Part shown: piece after piece, positions 1,454 through 20,854 of the stretch
How the letters are laid out: each line of letters begins with the position of its first letter
Numbering within the stretch: the first letter of the stretch is position 1
DNA from: a virus
Lineage: Duplodnaviria; Caudoviricetes
Strand: one strand, 5' to 3'
Virus record (IMG/VR): IMGVR_UViG_3300035530_000048
Span: 1 to 29,584 of that record
DNA: 29,584 nt
Position numbers and translations under genes: made by a program
Notes under the pieces: model-generated
What the model was told of the DNA's origin: nothing
What the model saw: the letters and a program-made list of their open reading frames with translations, nothing else
The model's database searches: none

Positions 1454-1510
1454 AGAAGTTTTGGGAATTTTTTAACCAAGTTATCTTGGCTTTTATCTAT
1501 GTAGATGTCC

Positions 1511-2773
1511 ATCTGCATTTGGGCCTTTTACAATAGCACTCGAAATTGCTATTGTAGTATCCGTTATATCTCGTTTGACTTTAGTTACAAATACTAACTG
1601 AATAGATTGATGGACTAGACTAGGATTTCTCTGTAATAATACAGGCAATCCTAGCAAATCTACTTGTTGTCCATTTTCGTCAACATAGGCAGCTTCTTCA
1701 ATAAGGGTTTTGAATATTTTATCAATGTCAGGATCGTATACAACTAAGGCTTTTGTAACCTTAGCCAATGCATCAATGACTTCATATCCGTGACGGTTGA
1801 TTAAGATGTTCATAATCATCAATTTATAAGTATTTACTCCAATCTTCCACGGAATGTGGATTTCATCTGCTTGTTGTGGTCCAATTATTGGAATGATAAC
1901 AGATCTAAATGTACCATGCAATCTAGTACCAAAGATATGTTTTCTAATCAATCCTTCTTTTGATGCTAACTTTTCTCTTATGATCTTTGTTAAATAGATT
2001 ACATAGGATTTATATGCACCAAATGTAACCTGTTCTAATTTGGTTGGATGAGTTACTACTGTTCTCAGAGTAAATGGAATAGTTACAAGATCAATAATTG
2101 CAGATAAGATATCTTTACTACTACTATCTGCATAGGTTAAGGATCGTCCTTCTTTATGAATGGGGTGAAGTTCATTCGATAGTATAGGTAACTTAGTACA
2201 CCAAATTCTGTCCCTATACTCATTCAGAAACCATTTGATATAATTTACTTGTTTCTTAGTTCGAGTTTTGTAGTGAACATGAAGAAAATAATCCATCAGA
2301 TAATCAAAGTTTTCCTTAACATAATTAAAACCTTGTCCAAGGATAACATCTGAAAGTTCTTCAGGAATAATAGCATCTACGTCTAACATGATATCTAGAT
2401 ATGATTCATTGGATTTCTTTAACCAATCGGATAATATCATGTAAGCAACTGGATGCATAAATGCAGTAATACCTGGAGGTGTACCGATCCACACTTTGTG
2501 TTTAAGTGAATCTACAAATTGTGAATCTACAATAGATTTACAGATAGGGCATTTAGATCCAATATAATAATTACCTTTGAGATTTCCACATTCACACTCG
2601 GCTATATACCCAATATCCTCATTCTTATTTTCAGTATATACTAAGTTAGTGACAGCTTCTGCAAAATGAGTTTCTGTAAAATCTATACTATTGACGAGTA
2701 CAGCATCTGGATTATTTGAAAACATCTCATCCAGATTTATAATTCCTAACATCCTATTTATAGTTTCTTCCAT
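1511..2773 (-). CDS. rpoC: Non-virion RNA polymerase beta'-like subunit, exon 1 (phiKZ gp55-like)
   Basis: Zinc-binding CECGNLKGNYYIGSKCPIC, KEGLIRKHIFGTRLHGTFRSVI, LLQRNPSL and a terminal GPNAD, the start of the NADFDGD catalytic loop; lies downstream of the chimallin-like gene as in phiKZ-like phages. Confidence 0.9.
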
Positions 2774-3804: not shown

Positions 3805-5391
3805 CTACCGGTAGTATCCTGCTGGATTCTGATAATGGTACCTTCCCTGTCCATAACGGGAACCCATTGCGGACGTAACTGCGAACGAACCCGAACCATA
3901 AGCTTCAGACTGCTTCATGATCAGATCCATATTGATACCAGACATGGACACTAGACTGGTGGAGATGTTCAGTACCTTATGTACGACTTCGCCCATCGTT
4001 CTGACGAGCTCAGCATCCAGTACGCAAGTCTGACTGATATACAGCCGACGGAATTCACTCATGATTTCTCGAACCAAATCAGCCCGAGGCATGGGATCGA
4101 TATCTCTTCTCATCAACTCAGTCACACGAGGATTATTCCCCATCGACCTTACGCAGGACAGATAGTCAACAATACGACTATCGTACACATTCCCACTACG
4201 AGCAACATATCCAACAAATTCTTCAAATACTGAACGTGCGGGAACAATATTGTTGGGAATATTCAATCCAAGGAACTGTCCAAAGATATTTCTGATAAGG
4301 TCATCGGCTTCCTGAGTCCGATCGGCCAACAATTCAATACGAGGAATACGAGCTCGACCATCAACAATGTCAATTGCCAGAACAGGACGTTCACAATAGA
4401 TGTTAATAAACTGATCGCGCTCTTCAACAGAAGATGCAGCCCAAGGCTGACCATTTTCCGTACGAATCAAATTACCAATATTCGGCTTATCCGATTCGAA
4501 CGAAGTAAACTGATTTCTCCACAATCCTTTACCGATGAACAGATCAGCAGCAACCGAGATGGCAGTTGCAGCCATGGACATGGTGGGCAGAGAAGATACG
4601 ATATCAGTGATGTGTACAATGGGCACATATTTGGTAGTCATCCCATCGGCAAACGAAGGTAGGAATTCGACATAAGCCAGTACCCCGACAATAGGAGTAA
4701 ATCGAGCCTGCTGATATTGATCCTGTCTACCGCCCATGTTGAGAAGATCATCCTTCTTCATGTTGATAGTAAATCCAAAATCTCCACGAGACTGGATCTT
4801 ATGGGGTGACAGAGATTCAACAAACTTCTTGGTTCTGGATACATCGATATCCGTAGTATACTGAATCTTTGACATGGCTTCAATAGTCATGTCATTGACT
4901 ACTTCAGACCGATACGCTTTGAAGATAGCGCTGATATGATCGGCCATAAACTTGGGGCGATCATAATCTTCCGATGTAACAATGATACAATTGAGTACAC
5001 GGAAATCTGAACCCATCATTGCAGCAGCAGAACGAATTGCTACTACATTCACGATGGAAGTAGGAAACTGGATATCTGTACCAACAGCTTCTTCGAAGTT
5101 AAGAACAATACCAACCTTACCCATTGCAAACAGAATAGCGCCGGATGGTTCATTCAACTGTCGAGTCTCAACAGACAGCCCACGAGCAGCATCTTCCAAC
5201 TCATGACGAACTGCTTTTACATATTCAGTACCGGCAGTTGAAATGTTAGCAGAAGTACCGAATGCAGAAATGATATCTGCAAAACTTGTCGGATTAGGAG
5301 CGGAAGCACCAGGTACGGTTCCACCAGTAGGAACTTCTTCTTCGATAGGCTTCTTTGTTTCAGTCGTTGCACCTTTCTTACTAATCGCCAT
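3805..5391 (-). CDS. chmA: Chimallin / phage nuclear shell protein (phiKZ gp54-like), about 528 aa from MAISKK
   Basis: Recalled chimallin-like motifs YVPIVHITD, W..QF...NIGNL, LAIDI and FVGYVARSGNVYDSRIVDYL; position just upstream of the nvRNAP beta' gene; strong GGAGGA RBS before ATG 5391; visibly higher G+C than neighbouring genes. Confidence 0.78.
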   Translation of the reverse strand: MAISKKGATTETKKPIEEEVPTGGTVPGASAPNPTSFADIISAFGTSANISTAGTEYVKAVRHELEDAARGLSVETRQLNEPSGAILFAMGKVGIVLNFEEAVGTDIQFPTSIVNVVAIRSAAAMMGSDFRVLNCIIVTSEDYDRPKFMADHISAIFKAYRSEVVNDMTIEAMSKIQYTTDIDVSRTKKFVESLSPHKIQSRGDFGFTINMKKDDLLNMGGRQDQYQQARFTPIVGVLAYVEFLPSFADGMTTKYVPIVHITDIVSSLPTMSMAATAISVAADLFIGKGLWRNQFTSFESDKPNIGNLIRTENGQPWAASSVEERDQFINIYCERPVLAIDIVDGRARIPRIELLADRTQEADDLIRNIFGQFLGLNIPNNIVPARSVFEEFVGYVARSGNVYDSRIVDYLSCVRSMGNNPRVTELMRRDIDPMPRADLVREIMSEFRRLYISQTCVLDAELVRTMGEVVHKVLNISTSLVSMSGINMDLIMKQSEAYGSGSFAVTSAMGSRYGQGRYHYQNPAGYYR

Positions 5392-5704
5392 AACAATTCC
5401 TCCATGGAAGGTTAAATAGTGCGGCACTAGTAACCGCAGACATTTGTAATATGTATATAAACAATAAAATTTAATTTATCATTCATATACTGACATCACA
5501 ATAATAATGTATATTTGAAAAATTAATCAAATATTAAAGTTAGTAAAATTACCAATTGAACACAATGTTCCAGATACACACATTATGCTTTTGGTATGTT
5601 TTTAAATATATAACCACCAAATAGGTAAATTAAATTCTATAGAAAATAAGTATATAAGTCAGTTATGATATAACTCAAATAAACCAGTATGGTTATAAGG
5701 AGAT

Positions 5705-6886
5705 ATGATTATGCTATTGGAATATATGAAAAAGTTTATAATAAATGATACTACATACAATGCGAATATATTACCACACTATAACAACTATCTTAATACC
5801 TTAGTAGTAAGAAATGCTCTATTGAAAGATAGACATTATGCGTTTGGTGGAAGCGAAACTAAAGGTGTAACTATATTGAAACATATATTGGGTCTTGTTG
5901 ATTTAAAGTATTTGAAAAGTCTACCTAATGATTTTGAAAGATTTACTAATTACTTTGATATAGTAAAACGGGATTGGATGGAAATCTATGATAATAATGC
6001 AACTAATAATGTATATAAGAAAACTTTTGTAACAAAGAAGCTATATACTTGTATGGAGTATCTGTTACCGTGTGAATGTGAAGATCCTTTATCTTTATAT
6101 CCTATGGATAAAGATTGGCAAAGTTGGATAAATGTAAAACCTTTACGATGTATAGATCATGATAGTAATGAGTATACTACTAATGTATTGACAGATCAAA
6201 TAGCTTTTAAAGTCCTTACTCCTAGTTATGTAGTATTTACACTAGATCCTGTGTTGTTAGGGTTTATGTATTTTAAATATATCGAATATACTGAACAGTC
6301 AGAAGATATAGTATTACCCATTCAACAATTTATTCATAAGTATGTAATTGATAAATTGATGGATGATTTACAAAATATATGGTTACGGAATGAGATACAT
6401 AGATTATTTACCTTACAAGATTCTAATGATATCAATAAACATCATTTAGCTGATACTATAACAGATCAGACATATAGTTATGTAGGATTACAATATGAAA
6501 CTGCAATGAAAGAAATTTGGAAAAAGATACAAGATGTGAGAATGCGAAAAGTTAGACCTGAAGAATTTTTAAATAGTATACAATTAACTAATAGTAATGC
6601 AATTACCTATCTAGATAATCTTTTACAATATACACATATACCTTTCCTTAGACAATATATGTGGCAAAGATATTTACGAGATGCTTCATGGGTAGATTTA
6701 GTATTTGATACATTTCTATTAGATACTTCTAGACAAAGTACTAAGAACTTGTTGAGATATCTTGTACGAAAACAGCCAACTATTGAAAGGTCTAGATTTT
6801 GGGATAATATAAGAGATCCTTTAATCAAAAGTAATGTAAAAAAGAAAATAACTAACCAATTAGAAAAATTAGAAAAATACGCATAA
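5705..6886 (+). CDS. Hypothetical jumbo-phage protein divergent from chimallin
   Basis: 393-aa ORF with AAGGAG RBS; no motif recognised. Confidence 0.7.
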   Translation: MIMLLEYMKKFIINDTTYNANILPHYNNYLNTLVVRNALLKDRHYAFGGSETKGVTILKHILGLVDLKYLKSLPNDFERFTNYFDIVKRDWMEIYDNNATNNVYKKTFVTKKLYTCMEYLLPCECEDPLSLYPMDKDWQSWINVKPLRCIDHDSNEYTTNVLTDQIAFKVLTPSYVVFTLDPVLLGFMYFKYIEYTEQSEDIVLPIQQFIHKYVIDKLMDDLQNIWLRNEIHRLFTLQDSNDINKHHLADTITDQTYSYVGLQYETAMKEIWKKIQDVRMRKVRPEEFLNSIQLTNSNAITYLDNLLQYTHIPFLRQYMWQRYLRDASWVDLVFDTFLLDTSRQSTKNLLRYLVRKQPTIERSRFWDNIRDPLIKSNVKKKITNQLEKLEKYA

Positions 6887-11782: not shown

Positions 11783-13741
11783 ATGTTGAAAGAGATCAAT
11801 GCTTTAATGCAAATGAATAATGGTACATCTGATGAGTGGAATCTTGTCGATGTTGTTATTCCCCAAGGTCTGTTGGTATACTCAACAGATACTCAACAGT
11901 TTAAGTTGGGTGATGGGAATACTTTATTTGTCCATTTGCCAGTATTTTTTGATGCTACTACTGCTGGGGATGTTGAAACATTTAAAAACAATTTTCCCAA
12001 TATCAATGCTGTAGATGCTAATAAGTTGTTAGTAGTCAATAGTCAAGGTGATGGATTTACTTTAACTGATTTTACTTTGTCAGATCTAGCTACGGTAAAT
12101 ATGATGAATGTAGCTTTAGCAGATAAGTCTCCTAAAGTACATACTCATCTGTTAAATGATATCGTAGGGGCTAATAGTGCAGCAGCTAAAGATGTCGGCA
12201 TTACAGCTGGTCAGGTCCCAGTAGTTGGTGCTAATGGTAAATTGTCTGAAGATGTAATACCTACTATCGATGACAACAGTTCTACTAAAGATGATATCAT
12301 CACTTGGTTGGTAATGAAACAGTTGGTAGAAGATGATCAAGTAAAACTCAATATGCCTAACGGGTATGTAGATGAATTTGAAGATGAGAGTCATATCGAT
12401 ACTGCCGTAAGTATAAATAGTACATATGATGCAACTACTGGTATGTATACTCTTACTGAAGGTACTATTCAGGCCATGAGTGAAACTTTAGAAGTATCTC
12501 CATCTACTATACATACATTTTTTAGATCTACTGAAACTAATACTAACATCGAATTGTTCTTTGAAATCTCTAGAGATGGTGGTACTAATTGGGCATATAC
12601 TCCAGTACAACAGAGTCGTATGTCTGGCGATGTTATCAAGATCTATACTGGAGATTGTAGTTTTGATGAAGAGAACGATAGTAAGATTGTTATACCTAGC
12701 GATTTCGAGATCGTAGACGATAAAGGAAATATTAGTCAGTTTACTGTAGATACAGCCTATACGAGTGGACACTTTGATAGTGCAGTATCTAGTGATATCA
12801 TTGTAGGATCATACATGACTATCGCTACTGTAGGTACTATCAAAATTACAGGTATATCTGGAGATGGTACAGCTGTAGATAGTGTAACTTATAATTGTGA
12901 TGATGTATATAGGGTATTGCCGCCGACTATTGTATCGCCTAGTGATAATGAAGTGGGCGTGATGGCTCCTATGACTGTAGAGTTGAGTACTTTTGATCCT
13001 TATGGTCTTACTGATACTCAAATTGGAAGTAGGGTCGATGTAGCCACTGATAGTGAATTTTTGAATATCTTATGTTCACCTACCAGTACAGAAAATAGTG
13101 TAGAGATAACGGAAGCTGATGGTCTAGTCACATCACAGAGTCTCTATCTGAGAGGATACCAAGAAGGACAGACTCTGGGATGGAGTAAAGCTGGTAGTAG
13201 TATACATATCACTATGGCTGATCAGTTTATAGGACATGGTGTAGCAGTAGCAGGTGGCACAGCCATAGGTCCATATACCTTTGCAGATGGTCAGACTGGG
13301 TATATAGTAGTACCTAGTAGTAGTGTGTTTACCGATAAGAAGTATGGATATTATAATGTAAATACTGATAGCTTAGGGTTGGCTTGTAGTACTTCCAATA
13401 CTTGGACAGATACTCGTACTGGATTGTATAATACTCAACGCTTATGTACTCAAAGTGGAGATGATGCTTATACTGATCCTAACGATAACCCAGCTCACTA
13501 TTGTAATAATCTAGTACATGATGGATGTAATGACTATTTTCTACCTAATGTAAATGAGTTGTACTATATCTATGAAAATAGATCATTACTAGGTATGACA
13601 TGGCCAAATACTTATGTATGGTCTAGTAGTCAATACGACTCGACTACTTACTCGTGGAACGTGTATTCGAGCGGTGGGGTGTACCGCAGCGGTCGGGACG
13701 GTCAGTTTGGAGTCGTTCCTGTCCGGAGAGTAGTAGTATAG
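11783..13741 (+). CDS. DGR target: tail fibre / receptor-binding protein with Mtd_N-like N-terminus and C-terminal C-type-lectin (DUF1566-like) variable domain
   Basis: N-terminal GTSDEW...GLLVYSTDTQQFKLGDGNTLFVHLP; fibre motifs HTHLLNDIVG and GQVPVVGANGKL; C-terminal DYFLPNVNEL...YVWSSSQ...VVPVRR ending in the VR. Confidence 0.88.
   Translation: MLKEINALMQMNNGTSDEWNLVDVVIPQGLLVYSTDTQQFKLGDGNTLFVHLPVFFDATTAGDVETFKNNFPNINAVDANKLLVVNSQGDGFTLTDFTLSDLATVNMMNVALADKSPKVHTHLLNDIVGANSAAAKDVGITAGQVPVVGANGKLSEDVIPTIDDNSSTKDDIITWLVMKQLVEDDQVKLNMPNGYVDEFEDESHIDTAVSINSTYDATTGMYTLTEGTIQAMSETLEVSPSTIHTFFRSTETNTNIELFFEISRDGGTNWAYTPVQQSRMSGDVIKIYTGDCSFDEENDSKIVIPSDFEIVDDKGNISQFTVDTAYTSGHFDSAVSSDIIVGSYMTIATVGTIKITGISGDGTAVDSVTYNCDDVYRVLPPTIVSPSDNEVGVMAPMTVELSTFDPYGLTDTQIGSRVDVATDSEFLNILCSPTSTENSVEITEADGLVTSQSLYLRGYQEGQTLGWSKAGSSIHITMADQFIGHGVAVAGGTAIGPYTFADGQTGYIVVPSSSVFTDKKYGYYNVNTDSLGLACSTSNTWTDTRTGLYNTQRLCTQSGDDAYTDPNDNPAHYCNNLVHDGCNDYFLPNVNELYYIYENRSLLGMTWPNTYVWSSSQYDSTTYSWNVYSSGGVYRSGRDGQFGVVPVRRVVV
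13640..13729 (+). repeat. DGR variable repeat (VR)
   Basis: 90 nt, 78/90 identical to 14561-14650; forms the last 30 codons before GTA GTA GTA TAG. Confidence 0.92.
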
Positions 13742-13775
13742 TAAATAGTTTTGTAGTATAAACTATTTACTATAC
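13736..13775 (+). promoter_or_regulatory. Hairpin/cruciform immediately downstream of VR (DGR target-recognition type; may also terminate transcription)
   Basis: 16-bp perfect stem GTATAGTAAATAGTTT / AAACTATTTACTATAC with an 8-nt loop, overlapping the stop codon. Confidence 0.75.
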
Positions 13776-13999
13776 GCTGGTATATGGCCATATCTTAATT
13801 CTTAACTCTTTAAAATTGGGAAGCGTCGGAATTTGCTATAGAAGTAGTAAACTACTTCTATACCGTACGATTGAAAATCGTAGGAAAGGAGACGCTTAAA
13901 CTCTCCAAATAGTTTATTTTATCTATAAGGTAGTGTAGGATAGGTAGTAATATCCTACACTACCTATCCTTTAATCCTTTTATCTCATACGAAATTCTT

Positions 14000-14362
14000 A
14001 TGCCATTAGCTTACCAGAAGATACAATTATATAAGGTCGGATTGCAAGTAATTACAGAAATGCATAAATATGTCAGTAAAATGAATAAACTTTATAAATA
14101 TTCATTGGGCACCAATTTAACTAATACTATGATGTATTGTGTTGAATTAATTTGTTGGACATATACTGTTCCTGACGATTTATCTAAATTTAATGGATTA
14201 CAAGTACTTAAAAATAATATAACTGCAGTCACTATTCAACTTAATATTGCCTTACACTTAGGAATAATAAAAAGAGCTAAATATGAGTATTTCATTATTG
14301 AATTAGTAAAAATGTTAGAACAAACAGATAAATGGATCAATTCTTTAAAAGTAAATAACTAA
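14000..14362 (+). CDS. avd: DGR accessory variability determinant (Avd-like four-helix bundle)
   Basis: 120-aa helical, basic ORF between target and TR/RT; LYK...KLYKYSLGTNL...LHLGII..KY...W pattern. Confidence 0.8.
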   Translation: MPLAYQKIQLYKVGLQVITEMHKYVSKMNKLYKYSLGTNLTNTMMYCVELICWTYTVPDDLSKFNGLQVLKNNITAVTIQLNIALHLGIIKRAKYEYFIIELVKMLEQTDKWINSLKVNN

Positions 14363-14506
14363 TAATACTTAATATAATTATTCCAAATTATACCTAGTAT
14401 ATTGTATATCTATCTGTCAGAATAATATCTTCCTAATGAAGTTATTAGAGTACTATCATCTCGGTTTATACTACCTTCTATGGTTATATTTTATATTTCA
14501 TATAAA

Positions 14507-14538
14507 TACTATCGAAGGCGGAAACGTCTTCGATGGTA
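14507..14538 (+). other. RNA hairpin with GAAA tetraloop upstream of TR (probably part of the DGR template RNA)
   Basis: TACTATCGAAGGCG-GAAA-CGTCTTCGATGGTA: 14 pairs including two G-U, which points to an RNA-level structure on the + strand. Confidence 0.6.
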
Positions 14539-14560
14539 ACAAATGTATAAACTACAATAC

Positions 14561-14650
14561 TCGACTACTAACTCGTGGCTCGTGCATTCGAGCGGTGGGG
14601 TGAACGCCAGCGATCGGCACAATCAGTATGGAGTCGTTCCTGTCCGGAGA
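14561..14650 (+). repeat. DGR template repeat (TR), atypically depleted of AAY codons
   Basis: Non-coding copy of the VR in the canonical position between avd and RT; 6 mismatches at TR adenines and 6 at non-A bases. Confidence 0.85.
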
Positions 14651-14657
14651 TGATATA

Positions 14658-15779
14658 ATGATAGATATACTACCCGACAATGAGATATTATTTGAGGAGT
14701 TATTACACGCCTATTTGGATTGTCGAAACTCAAAACGTTATAAAAATACCCAACTAGATTTTGAATTAGATCATTTAAACAATCTTAGACAGTTATTGGT
14801 AGAATTAAATACATACACATATCAAATACAACAATCAATAGTATTTATTATTACTGATCCTAAAATTAGAGAAGTATGGGCAGCAACTTTCAGAGATAGA
14901 ATAGTTCATCATTTGATATATAACAATCTTAAATATATCGAAAAAAGATTTATCGAAGATACCTATAGTTGTATCGAAAATAGAGGTACCTTAGCTGCAG
15001 CTTATCGTCTAGATCATTTTTGTAAAAGTATAACCCATACATATACAAAAACAGCATATTATTTCAAATTTGACATTACCAACTTTTTTGGATCTATAGA
15101 TAAAAATATTTTATGGAATATAGTTGAACCTTTAATTAGTAGAACTATTATCAAAAAATTATTATACCAAGTTATATTTAACGATCCTACAATAGATCCT
15201 ATTTATATGGGTAATTATCATAATGAAGTATTACAATTGCCTCAACATAAATCATTATTCAATAGACCAAAAGATGTTGGATTACCTATAGGAAATATCA
15301 CCAGTCAATTTCTAAGTAATCTATATCTCAATATATTAGATCAATATATCAAACATCAATTACATTGTAAATATTATTTAAGATATGCAGACGATGCTAT
15401 TATCTTAGATTACTCTAAAGATAACTTATTGTACTATCAAAAAATTATAAATGAATATTTATATGATCAATTACATCTAACATTACATCCCGACAAATGC
15501 TATATCAATGAAATATCTTCCGGTATAGATTTTGTAGGATATATCATTTATCCATACTACACACAACTAAGACCACATACTATTGAAAAAGTATTTAAGA
15601 TAACTAAAAATAAAAAATATCTTCCATTAGAAGATTTAACAGCTTCCATAAATAGTTATCTAGGAATGCTAAGACATACAACATCATATAATACAAGAAA
15701 GTTAGTATGCCAATCATGCCATATTCCTATGATAATAGAATACAATGATACATATACTAAAGTTTCTTCTTTTTCTTAA
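14658..15779 (+). CDS. DGR reverse transcriptase
   Basis: DPKIREVWAATFRDRIVHH, YSCIENRGT, FKFDITNFFGSID, GLPIGNITSQFLSNLYL, YLRYADDAII and GIDFVGY; likely start is ATG 14658 with GGAGA SD at 14646-14650. Confidence 0.95.
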   Translation: MIDILPDNEILFEELLHAYLDCRNSKRYKNTQLDFELDHLNNLRQLLVELNTYTYQIQQSIVFIITDPKIREVWAATFRDRIVHHLIYNNLKYIEKRFIEDTYSCIENRGTLAAAYRLDHFCKSITHTYTKTAYYFKFDITNFFGSIDKNILWNIVEPLISRTIIKKLLYQVIFNDPTIDPIYMGNYHNEVLQLPQHKSLFNRPKDVGLPIGNITSQFLSNLYLNILDQYIKHQLHCKYYLRYADDAIILDYSKDNLLYYQKIINEYLYDQLHLTLHPDKCYINEISSGIDFVGYIIYPYYTQLRPHTIEKVFKITKNKKYLPLEDLTASINSYLGMLRHTTSYNTRKLVCQSCHIPMIIEYNDTYTKVSSFS

Positions 15780-19516: not shown

Positions 19517-20854
19517 TTATGATCCATTAATGAGATCAACTACATCCAATATAGACATATATGGTCGTTTCTCTTTCTTATTATACGTCCAATATCCTCT
19601 CGAATTAAGGATATCTGAAATTACATTGCCACCTTTCAGTACTCCATTAACAAACTCTTTGGGTTTGATATTCAACGAATCACTTAACCCGAAAGTCGAC
19701 CACTCATTTTGGATATAACACAATTGTCCTAATAATTCAATTGTTCTATCGAGTTCATAGTTTTCACTCAATTTAGCACGTACAGATTTTCTAGTAAGGG
19801 GAATATTAGGTAATAGATCGCAAGTTTGAGTAACATTATTCCCACCCAATCCAAACATCTTATTTTTCTTCAGATAATGAAAGTTACTTAACCCCGATAA
19901 TATACCTTGATATTGCGAAATGATAGGATGAACAATTGGACCAGATGCATTATTCTTACATCTACACACAATAGTATCTACAAGATTTAATTCATTAGCT
20001 ACACTAAACGATTCGGGATATTGACAGTTCTTATCTGAATCCTGTAATACTTTTATACCACGAGCTTCCAATAGAGTAGATGTCAAAAAAGTAAACTGAC
20101 TTCCTGCATTTTTAATACTATCATTAGCTTTCATGTATTGTAAATCTTTAGGTGATTTAGAATAAGGATCTAAATCAAACTTATTTCCAATATGAGCTGT
20201 AATAATAAAATAAATTCCACCTTTAGCAGCAAGTGCAGGTATCTGTCTCATCATTTGGGTTTTCATATTCCCATCATTCATATATACAGTATTGAGTTTG
20301 GAATCTCCCAATTGATGTTTATCGTATAACTCTTCTTCTTTGAGTGAGTTGAGTTTAGATATGGAGTCAATGACAAATATCGTAGGAACAAACATAGTTC
20401 TTGGTTTGAGTGTCTTATTATCAATAAATGGAGTCTCTACTATGTAATCTTTTTTGTTCTTTACTTTATGTTCAACTAATCGTTTAATAAAAGTAAACAA
20501 AGAACTTGTATCGTGAGTAGAGTTATCCCACAAAGCTATAACATCAGGATCTATAGTAGTGTCACACATATCAACAATACGAGACTTTCCTGCTATAGAG
20601 AATTCGCTATCGTGAATCAGTAGTTCACTACCTTCATATCGAGCAGCTGCACGTACTGCTAACGATAAAGCTTCTGTCGATTTATATCGCTGAGGTCTAC
20701 CGACAATACCATTGACTCTACTTAGTCCACCATTGAGAATCATATTAGATTTTCCAGGAACAAATTTACCAGTAGCAAGATCGAATTGAGTACCTGTATT
20801 GAGATATGGAGTAAATACGCTAGTTGACACATTTAATGCAGAAAGAATACCCAT
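19517..20854 (-). CDS. uvsX: RecA/UvsX-like recombinase (phiKZ gp152-like)
   Basis: LNTGTQFDLATG...ILNGGL, Walker A GRPQRYKST, HDSE, Walker B IFVIDSIS and FIITAHIG. Confidence 0.85.
   Translation of the reverse strand: MGILSALNVSTSVFTPYLNTGTQFDLATGKFVPGKSNMILNGGLSRVNGIVGRPQRYKSTEALSLAVRAAARYEGSELLIHDSEFSIAGKSRIVDMCDTTIDPDVIALWDNSTHDTSSLFTFIKRLVEHKVKNKKDYIVETPFIDNKTLKPRTMFVPTIFVIDSISKLNSLKEEELYDKHQLGDSKLNTVYMNDGNMKTQMMRQIPALAAKGGIYFIITAHIGNKFDLDPYSKSPKDLQYMKANDSIKNAGSQFTFLTSTLLEARGIKVLQDSDKNCQYPESFSVANELNLVDTIVCRCKNNASGPIVHPIISQYQGILSGLSNFHYLKKNKMFGLGGNNVTQTCDLLPNIPLTRKSVRAKLSENYELDRTIELLGQLCYIQNEWSTFGLSDSLNIKPKEFVNGVLKGGNVISDILNSRGYWTYNKKEKRPYMSILDVVDLINGS

Follow-up and report, generated by a model that had tools for sequence, protein, structure and literature searches.

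Known systems and the locus under study

One-way transfer from an unchanging template repeat (TR) to a variable repeat (VR) is the stated rule of natural diversity-generating retroelements (DGRs) (PMC10907252; 10.64898/2026.06.12.731847; PMC3240598), and natural TRs are described as unaltered (PMC10907252; PMC3240598). Here we describe a DGR that departs from this rule. It lies in the IMG/VR virus record IMGVR_UViG_3300035530_000048 (Duplodnaviria; Caudoviricetes), of which the whole stretch analysed, positions 1 to 29,584 (29,584 nucleotides), is called the window. Three TR alleles occupy one locus in this phage population, all 18 changes in the two mutated alleles fall at adenines of the intact allele, the mutated repeats are joined to their unique flanks, and the VRs derive from the intact allele. 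Our reading, to which we give a probability of roughly 70%, is that an adenine-specific DGR had its genomic template replaced by a mutagenised copy of itself in at least two separate events within one population, likely through homing of complementary DNA (cDNA) into the TR.

The closest described system is the DGR of phage BPP-1 (mtd with VR, initiation of mutagenic homing (IMH) sequence and hairpin, followed by avd, TR and brt). The two DGRs share the order target, avd, TR and reverse transcriptase (RT), a C-type-lectin-fold target with a terminal VR, a GC-rich shared 3' stretch, a hairpin behind the VR and adenine-only changes at codon positions 1 and 2 (PMC3240598). However, the BPP-1 TR "remains unchanged" (PMC3240598), whereas the TR described here has two mutagenised alleles in nature. 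The window DGR also has no homology of the 21-bp IMH/IMH* kind past the shared end, has its RT 7 nt after the TR, and is carried by a jumbo phage, predicted to encode chimallin, with several remote targets.

Overwriting of a TR by its own cDNA, with progressive loss of adenines, is known from engineered DGRs (DGRec, 10.1101/2025.03.24.644984, and E. coli DGR systems), which overwrite their own TR "unlike natural DGR systems" (10.64898/2026.06.12.731847; 10.64898/2026.07.21.739853; 10.1101/2025.03.24.644984). They require an added annealing protein (RecT) and edit the TR at target-like rates, whereas the rewriting seen here is natural and apparently rare, the intact TR standing alone in 5 of 8 metagenome runs. 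A recent model lets the TR be altered by point mutation only (10.64898/2026.02.18.706561). Surveys found at least one non-adenine mismatch in 86 of 372 DGRs and seven clusters with less than 75% adenine, and ascribe such pairs to an atypical RT, integration errors or later mutation (PMC5758913; PMC8144416). As in these "atypical" DGRs, the TR/VR pair in the window has many non-adenine mismatches; here, however, the intact allele shows that the TR changed and not the RT. Only engineered cases of TR rewriting, and no natural one, were found in a literature search whose coverage stopped short of subscription papers, bioRxiv supplements and part of the Roux 2021 supplement. The available parts of PMC10743442, PMC7824862 and 10.1101/2024.11.15.621889 contained nothing on TR rewriting. 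New here is a natural leak in DGR directionality, backed by population data, in an element that is otherwise ordinary.

The window holds a complete DGR, with the following parts.

11783..13741, + strand: DGR target gene, 652 aa, with a tail-fibre-like N-terminus and a C-terminal C-type-lectin-fold (Lcl_C/DUF1566-like) domain
13638..13729, + strand: VR; 12 of 12 differences from the intact template at adenines; several alleles per run
13736..13775, + strand: 16-bp inverted repeat (hairpin/cruciform) just 3' of the VR; DNA fold z -3.79
14000..14362, + strand: avd, intact, 120 aa; PHROG 3206 Avd E 2.8e-6; NCBIfam DivGenRetAVD E 4e-5, below cut-off
14363..14558, + strand: predicted structured RNA region 5' of the TR (RNA fold z -3.32 over 14363-14720), including a hairpin at 14507-14538
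14559..14650, + strand: TR, adenine-mutagenised allele "W", present in runs X1 and X2
14579..14618, + strand: span of the eight A-to-N changes in the window TR (4 C, 3 G, 1 T)
14658..15779, + strand: DGR-type RT, intact, 373 aa; RVT_1 E 3e-17; PHROG 1423 E 6e-91; YADD at residue 243

Three template alleles at one locus

An ungapped 92-nt alignment of the VR (13638-13729) and the TR (14559-14650) of the window shows 12 mismatches, which fall in nine codons (TR/VR: AAC/TAC, CTC/AAC, CAT/TAT, AAC/TAC, GCC/CGC, GAT/GGT, CAC/GAC, AAT/GGT, TAT/TTT). Six are at TR adenines and six at TR C, T or G, and all are at codon positions 1 and 2. This is the pattern that an earlier note, made from the letters of the window, had singled out, and it was confirmed in every detail: the count, the half at non-adenine template bases, the exact codon pairs and the absence of mismatches at position 3.

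An exact scan of viral contigs gave three loci; L003 is the locus of the whole contig L007, and L001 that of L006. Outside the TR, L003/L007 is identical to the window at 5,968 of 5,969 bases. Its TR, called intact here, has 27 adenines, 25 of them at codon positions 1 and 2, and nine AAY codons. Relative to it, the window TR (allele W) has eight differences, all at adenines (hypergeometric p 2.4e-5), and the window VR has 12, again all at adenines. Beyond the VR region on its downstream side, L006 has 1 substitution in 7,873 bases relative to the window. Its TR is a third allele, "L", of which 10 of 10 changes are at adenines in a pattern unlike that of W (p 1.2e-6); the VR of L006 has 14 differences from the intact TR, 13 of them at adenines. 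Taken together, the two mutated TRs and the two VRs show 44 differences from the intact TR, 43 of them at adenines. The changes in the window TR are also strongly concentrated, with 8 in 92 nt versus 1 in 5,969 flanking nt (Fisher p 1.8e-14), and the RT is 100% identical in L006 and L007.

Since the changes of both TR and VR relative to the intact allele are at adenines while the flanks are near-invariant, the RT is an ordinary adenine mutator and it is the template itself that was rewritten. The "non-adenine" mismatches between TR and VR come from comparing two copies of one master that were mutagenised independently: a VR that differs only at TR adenines is what is seen against the intact allele (12/12 and 13/14), and not against the window's own TR (6/12). 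The intact AAY-rich TR is the ancestral allele of the same locus. In place of the invariant TR of a BPP-1-type DGR, with its one-way transfer, this locus thus has three alleles.

The earlier note had supposed that both copies stem from an AAY-rich master and that the template might be rewritable. Both ideas are borne out. L003/L007 and 7 of the 8 metagenome runs examined have the master at the locus itself, and the three alleles sit in one near-identical background, the mutated ones differing at adenines. The comparison of TRs in related phages that it had proposed thus yielded an intact AAY-rich TR (L003/L007) and a second mutated one (L006). It had also pointed to a 3-nt offset upstream of the repeat, where the TR reads CAATAC-TCG and the VR CAATACGACTCG. 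This offset is real and is common to all three TR alleles; because L001 and L003 align there to the window without a gap, it is older than the rewriting and separate from it.

The one-way rule therefore leaks in a wild population, with the ancestral template and two derived ones side by side. Template rewriting offers a simple explanation for some of the "non-adenine" DGRs in surveys and is a route of DGR decay. It also provides a natural handle on how cDNA is integrated and what protects the TR, a question of added interest here as a protein shell is predicted to enclose the DNA of this phage.

Template alleles in metagenome runs

Twenty metagenome runs were listed, 11 of them with half or more of the search words, all 2020 oil-field metagenomes in the form of Logan contigs, and eight were examined. 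Statements on runs refer to the Logan contigs listed, and such contigs lose rare variants. No RNA run was among the 20 matches listed. Five of the eight runs have the intact TR only, at full locus depth (X3, 11.3; X4, 9; X6, 65.8; X9, 65.7; X10, 9.89), and in X10 it lies within a 17-kb contig running through avd, TR and RT. In X1, W is found on one contig covering 13887-14650 with 0 differences and depth 37.7, joined to avd, and the adjoining RT contig has depth 41.1; no intact TR allele is among the contigs listed for this run. In X2, the avd contig ends at 14578, where the graph forks into W (depth 11.1) and the intact allele (6). In X5, the avd contig ends at 14566 and the fork leads to the intact allele (5.44) and to a contig covering 14537-14652 (3.1) with 11 differing letters and two gaps. 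The L006 allele aligned to the window gives the same counts (11 differences, two gaps) and the listed letters agree; we infer that the second allele in X5 is L.

The contig overlaps of 30 nt imply a word size of 31. Mutated TR sequence is joined to TR-only sequence by ten 31-mers for W (5' side) and by 22 (5') and two (3') for L. The L allele begins 9 nt into the repeat, and the contig of the second allele in X5 spans both unique TR flanks. The 3' junction of W, at 34 nt, is longer than one 31-mer, and on that side the case for W is its depth together with no other allele being listed in X1.

The window VR is found in X1 (depth 27.8) and in X2 (11.1, equal to the depth of W there), and it is excluded by listed differences in the other six runs. 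W and the window VR thus have the same distribution over runs, 2 of 8 (p 0.036), which points to one clone carrying both. The rise of W would most simply be hitch-hiking with that clone, or its drift. A pattern scan of metagenomes gave two matches, both chance hits in unrelated sequence. A loose end at 14650 was considered as a sister TR and rejected; it is where a paralogous lectin gene of the contig set G002 ends, in drifted form.

How the template may have been rewritten

In the cDNA route, RT and Avd would make mutagenised cDNA from TR RNA, and most of it would go to the VRs, favoured by the hairpin behind the VR. Occasionally the cDNA would anneal to the perfectly homologous TR, by homology alone, and recombination proteins of the phage might assist within its predicted nucleus. 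A template rewritten in this way would then rise with its clone, in keeping with the co-occurrence of window TR and window VR, and self-homing of this kind would take one event per mutated allele. As the TR is without a 3' hairpin, its editing would proceed by homology alone and be rare, which fits the five of eight runs with the intact TR only.

Copying from the adjacent VR is excluded, as in both assemblies the sites that distinguish TR from VR are interleaved. A remote VR donor in the same genome should leave a W-like VR in X1, which would break the W contig and double its depth. Neither effect was seen, the W contig in X1 being unbroken and at single-locus depth. Self-retrohoming of the TR had been the first of the options offered in the earlier note and is the best among them. 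The rewriting stands; the cDNA step is likely, with conversion from the VR of another genome as its rival.

Several points weigh against this route. A VR being a mutagenised copy of the TR in its own right, sequence does not separate a VR donor from a cDNA donor. Several VR cassettes and a UvsX-like gene are present in the phage, and the VR peptide that the target proteins P0134 and P0138 have in common means that recombination between repeats may occur here (unless those assemblies were joined wrongly). Of the 10 derived bases of the L allele, 5 are shared with one of the two VRs and 4 with the other; an A-to-G bias can explain this, and a selected VR as donor also fits. The TR is without the 3' hairpin that BPP-1 homing needs (Guo et al. 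2011, PMC3240598). The evidence consists of contigs rather than raw reads, with rare variants dropped and counts taken from the contigs listed, and the 3' junction of W exceeds one 31-mer. Finally, the runs with the locus are all 2020 oil-field samples, possibly from one campaign, and the assemblies may derive from X1 and X5. The sharing of two of eight derived bases between window TR and window VR was also considered and is no evidence of a conversion tract.

The alternative that survives best is VR-to-TR gene conversion, in which a VR, most plausibly from a co-infecting sibling or from a remote target since lost, would have been copied onto the TR by homologous recombination (UvsX-like protein), with no cDNA at that step. 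We consider it unlikely but still a serious contender. Besides the several cassettes per genome, the UvsX-like gene and the one VR peptide in two target genes, it can draw on the G-rich L allele, which resembles the VRs in this, and on a DGRec preprint that reports some RT-independent TR-VR recombination (10.1101/2025.03.24.644984). However, the mutated TRs are unequal to the neighbouring VR (12 and 14 mismatches, interleaved), and X1, with an unbroken W contig and no other TR allele listed, shows no W-like VR. A donor in the same genome should persist or retain the fixed letters of W, and a co-infecting donor was not seen. TR-VR recombination was moreover rare in the BPP-1 DGR reconstituted in E. 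coli, where RecA was not needed (PMC12875486).

The earlier note had also offered an assembly mosaic, with VR variant reads stitched into the TR position. TR and VR do share stretches of 20 nt (5') and 32 nt (3') around the changes of W, whose 3' junction is longer than the 31-mer, and the IMG/VR contigs here often break at VRs (L002, L003). This explanation is nevertheless rejected as very improbable: independent Logan contigs with 30-nt overlaps join W to avd, in X1 at full locus depth and in X2 as the stronger of the two branches, and L begins inside the repeat and its X5 contig covers both flanks. Junction-spanning k=31 contigs at locus depth are found in three runs (X1, X2, X5). A further proposal, that the window TR is a spent copy and the true master acts in trans from elsewhere in the same genome, would suit the small part of a jumbo genome covered (29.6 kb in the window; sister contigs 2-12% complete) and the published in-trans activity of DGRs (PMC10907252). 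It is equally improbable and was discarded, as L007 and 7 of 8 runs have the intact master in this same position, no contig with the intact letters is among those listed in X1, and the window has no third AAY-rich copy. An RT that mutates non-adenine bases, or ordinary point-mutation drift of the TR, as surveys offer for non-adenine mismatches (Wu 2018, PMC5758913; Roux 2021 supplement, PMC8144416), is hardly credible with 43 of 44 differences at intact-TR adenines and flanks nearly invariant.

Homing of cDNA into the TR could be part of something broader. In nucleus-forming phages, cDNA might be integrated by the phage's homology-driven recombination without strict target marking, with the TR as a regular recipient, its adenines being burned and an intact TR regained from co-infecting siblings. 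We regard this extension as doubtful. If true, it would be a heritable, reversible dimmer on hypermutation.

Variable repeats, targets and the fate of the template

A rewritable template had been proposed as a means to lock in successful residues. This is unsupported. W conflicts with its own VR at six fixed bases, so the residues now present would be overwritten rather than kept if W templated another round. At 13689, W has G, and all VR contigs listed for X1, apart from that of the window VR, have A. Among the VRs examined there is neither a match to W or L nor a descendant of them. Nineteen target-like proteins (from 24 ids) were scored: eight are within 0-2 residues of the reach of the intact TR, and each of these has 4-9 residues that W or L could not give; the remaining 11 are paralogs that have drifted.

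The adenines of the TR fall from 27 in the intact allele to 19 (W) or 17 (L), and the AAY codons from nine to three. Reachable peptides decrease from ~4e13 to ~9e8 or 6e7. The change in the template is thus predicted to be an erosion of mutable sites, a slow ratchet and not a memory. With the predicted RNA scaffold kept and RT and avd unchanged, W may still function at lower power.

The downstream block around the VR stands at 2.1-2.7 times the avd depth in five runs. Other strains were considered as the cause; the steady ratio fits several VR cassettes per phage genome better. Contigs of remote targets are found at DGR depth in X3 and X4. There are at least three further target types with this VR (L002:1-35 / L016:2-1309 in G002; P0126, P0127, P0133-P0139), one of which has the VR inside the protein with more domains after it, and several drifted lectin paralogs (P0128-P0132) are now beyond the reach of the TR. 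P0134 and P0138 are two different 750-aa target genes with an identical VR peptide, which may reflect VR-to-VR conversion or a chimeric assembly.

Survey of related DGR loci

Loci with related RTs were surveyed, the best 80 of at least 591 in viral sequences and the best 80 of at least 577 in genomes; one locus (L018), being the same DGR, was dropped. Codon-phased ungapped repeat pairs were obtained for 131 of the 159 loci (127 unique pairs), and 28 loci gave none. Among the 127 pairs, 119 had at least 90% of their differences at adenines, four had 75-90% and four were below. Three of these last four are, in our reading, not TR/VR pairs. The locus L022 (4863-4962; IMGVR_UViG_3300011714_000042) belongs to an unrelated three-target DGR and has an adenine-depleted repeat at the TR position, with 15 A versus 30 in its relative L024. 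Of 17 differences between the two, 15 are at L024 adenines, and the repeat equals none of its three VRs; both L024 and another relative, L030, have kept an AAC-rich TR. L022 is a possible independent case of template erosion, one in 127, known from assembly alone. At another locus, two near-identical AAC-rich TR-like copies lie within one DGR (L176:1004-1141 and 1669-1806), a template duplication.

Parts of the DGR

The N-terminus of the target gene has PHROG tail-fibre matches, and its Pfam Lcl_C match (E 8e-5) is below the cut-off. In an AlphaFold model (pLDDT 77), the last domain of the target is folded like the C-terminal domain of Lcl (8q4e, E 6e-5), and C-type lectins are matched more weakly. 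Sequence searches of the PDB missed this lectin domain and a comparison of folds was needed. In the predicted fold, the VR lies where the C-type-lectin-fold domain ends, as in DGR targets.

The hairpin behind the VR has no counterpart 3' of the TR (folding energy -13.3 versus -1.2 kcal/mol). As to an IMH/IMH* pair, the last 21 nt are identical in TR and VR, and beyond them there is no alignable sequence. Upstream of the TR, the predicted RNA scaffold has the same outer helices in all three alleles, and an Rfam search of the structured region gave no match near threshold. The ATG of the RT gene lies 7 nt past the TR end (spacer 14651-14657), and a predicted helix pairs ~14403-14413 with ~14657-14667; any priming spacer would thus overlap the start of the RT coding sequence. 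The many VR alleles give indirect support for an active element. Past the VR hairpin, at 13803-13804, 56 nt with an inverted repeat are inserted in L001, and residues upstream of the VR also differ; what is joined to this DGR there is probably the terminal part of a paralogous target cassette.

A predicted nucleus-forming jumbo phage

Outside the DGR, three genes of the window are informative on the nature of the phage.

1493..2773, - strand: phage multisubunit RNA polymerase (RNAP) subunit; PHROG 2987 E 5e-86
3805..5427, - strand: chimallin (phage nuclear shell protein), 540-aa open reading frame (ORF), by predicted fold
19517..20854, - strand: UvsX-like recombinase; PHROG 97 E 4e-33

The ORF at 3805-5427, near the RNAP gene, is unannotated and has three relatives by sequence (27-60% identity). 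Chimallin was not detected in sequence searches of the PDB, and the predicted fold was needed. The AlphaFold model, from a four-sequence alignment (pLDDT 66, pTM 0.72), gave nine Foldseek matches with E <= 0.001, all of them chimallin/PhuN (E 6e-15 to 5e-12, TM ~0.58). The match at E 6e-15 is Goslar chimallin, so the modelled protein would be the chimallin expected of Chimalliviridae. The UvsX-like gene, already named in the earlier note, is real, and its product is a candidate agent of recombination at the TR. G002 carries genes for PhuZ, capsid, terminase, helicase and polymerase, and is probably linked to the window phage, as the two share a VR end and have equal depth. By CheckV, fragments of 23 and 33 kb are 8% and 12% complete.

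Chimallin, the RNAP subunit, the UvsX-like gene and PhuZ on G002 together predict a nucleus-forming jumbo phage. Like phiKZ, 201phi2-1 and Goslar of the Chimalliviridae, it has chimallin (by fold), a multisubunit RNAP subunit, a UvsX-like gene and PhuZ (on the probably linked contig), and it would represent a divergent nucleus-forming lineage from oil-field samples. The protein shell of the phage nucleus is reported to exclude many host enzymes. The term "diversity-generating retroelement" was not found in the 40 papers listed, out of 93, for the Chimalliviridae literature, and the available part of a 224-genome review of jumbo phages mentions DGRs for other phages only (PMC7824862).

An HNH/NUMOD1 endonuclease gene (140-1390, - strand) directly follows the RNAP subunit gene, whose ORF ends abruptly; the RNAP gene may be split here by an intron or homing endonuclease. 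On L008 (G002), near the paralogous lectin gene and beside a membrane protein gene, a 118-aa ORF has what we take to be a DsrE/DsrF-like look, which might hint at a sulfur-metabolising host.

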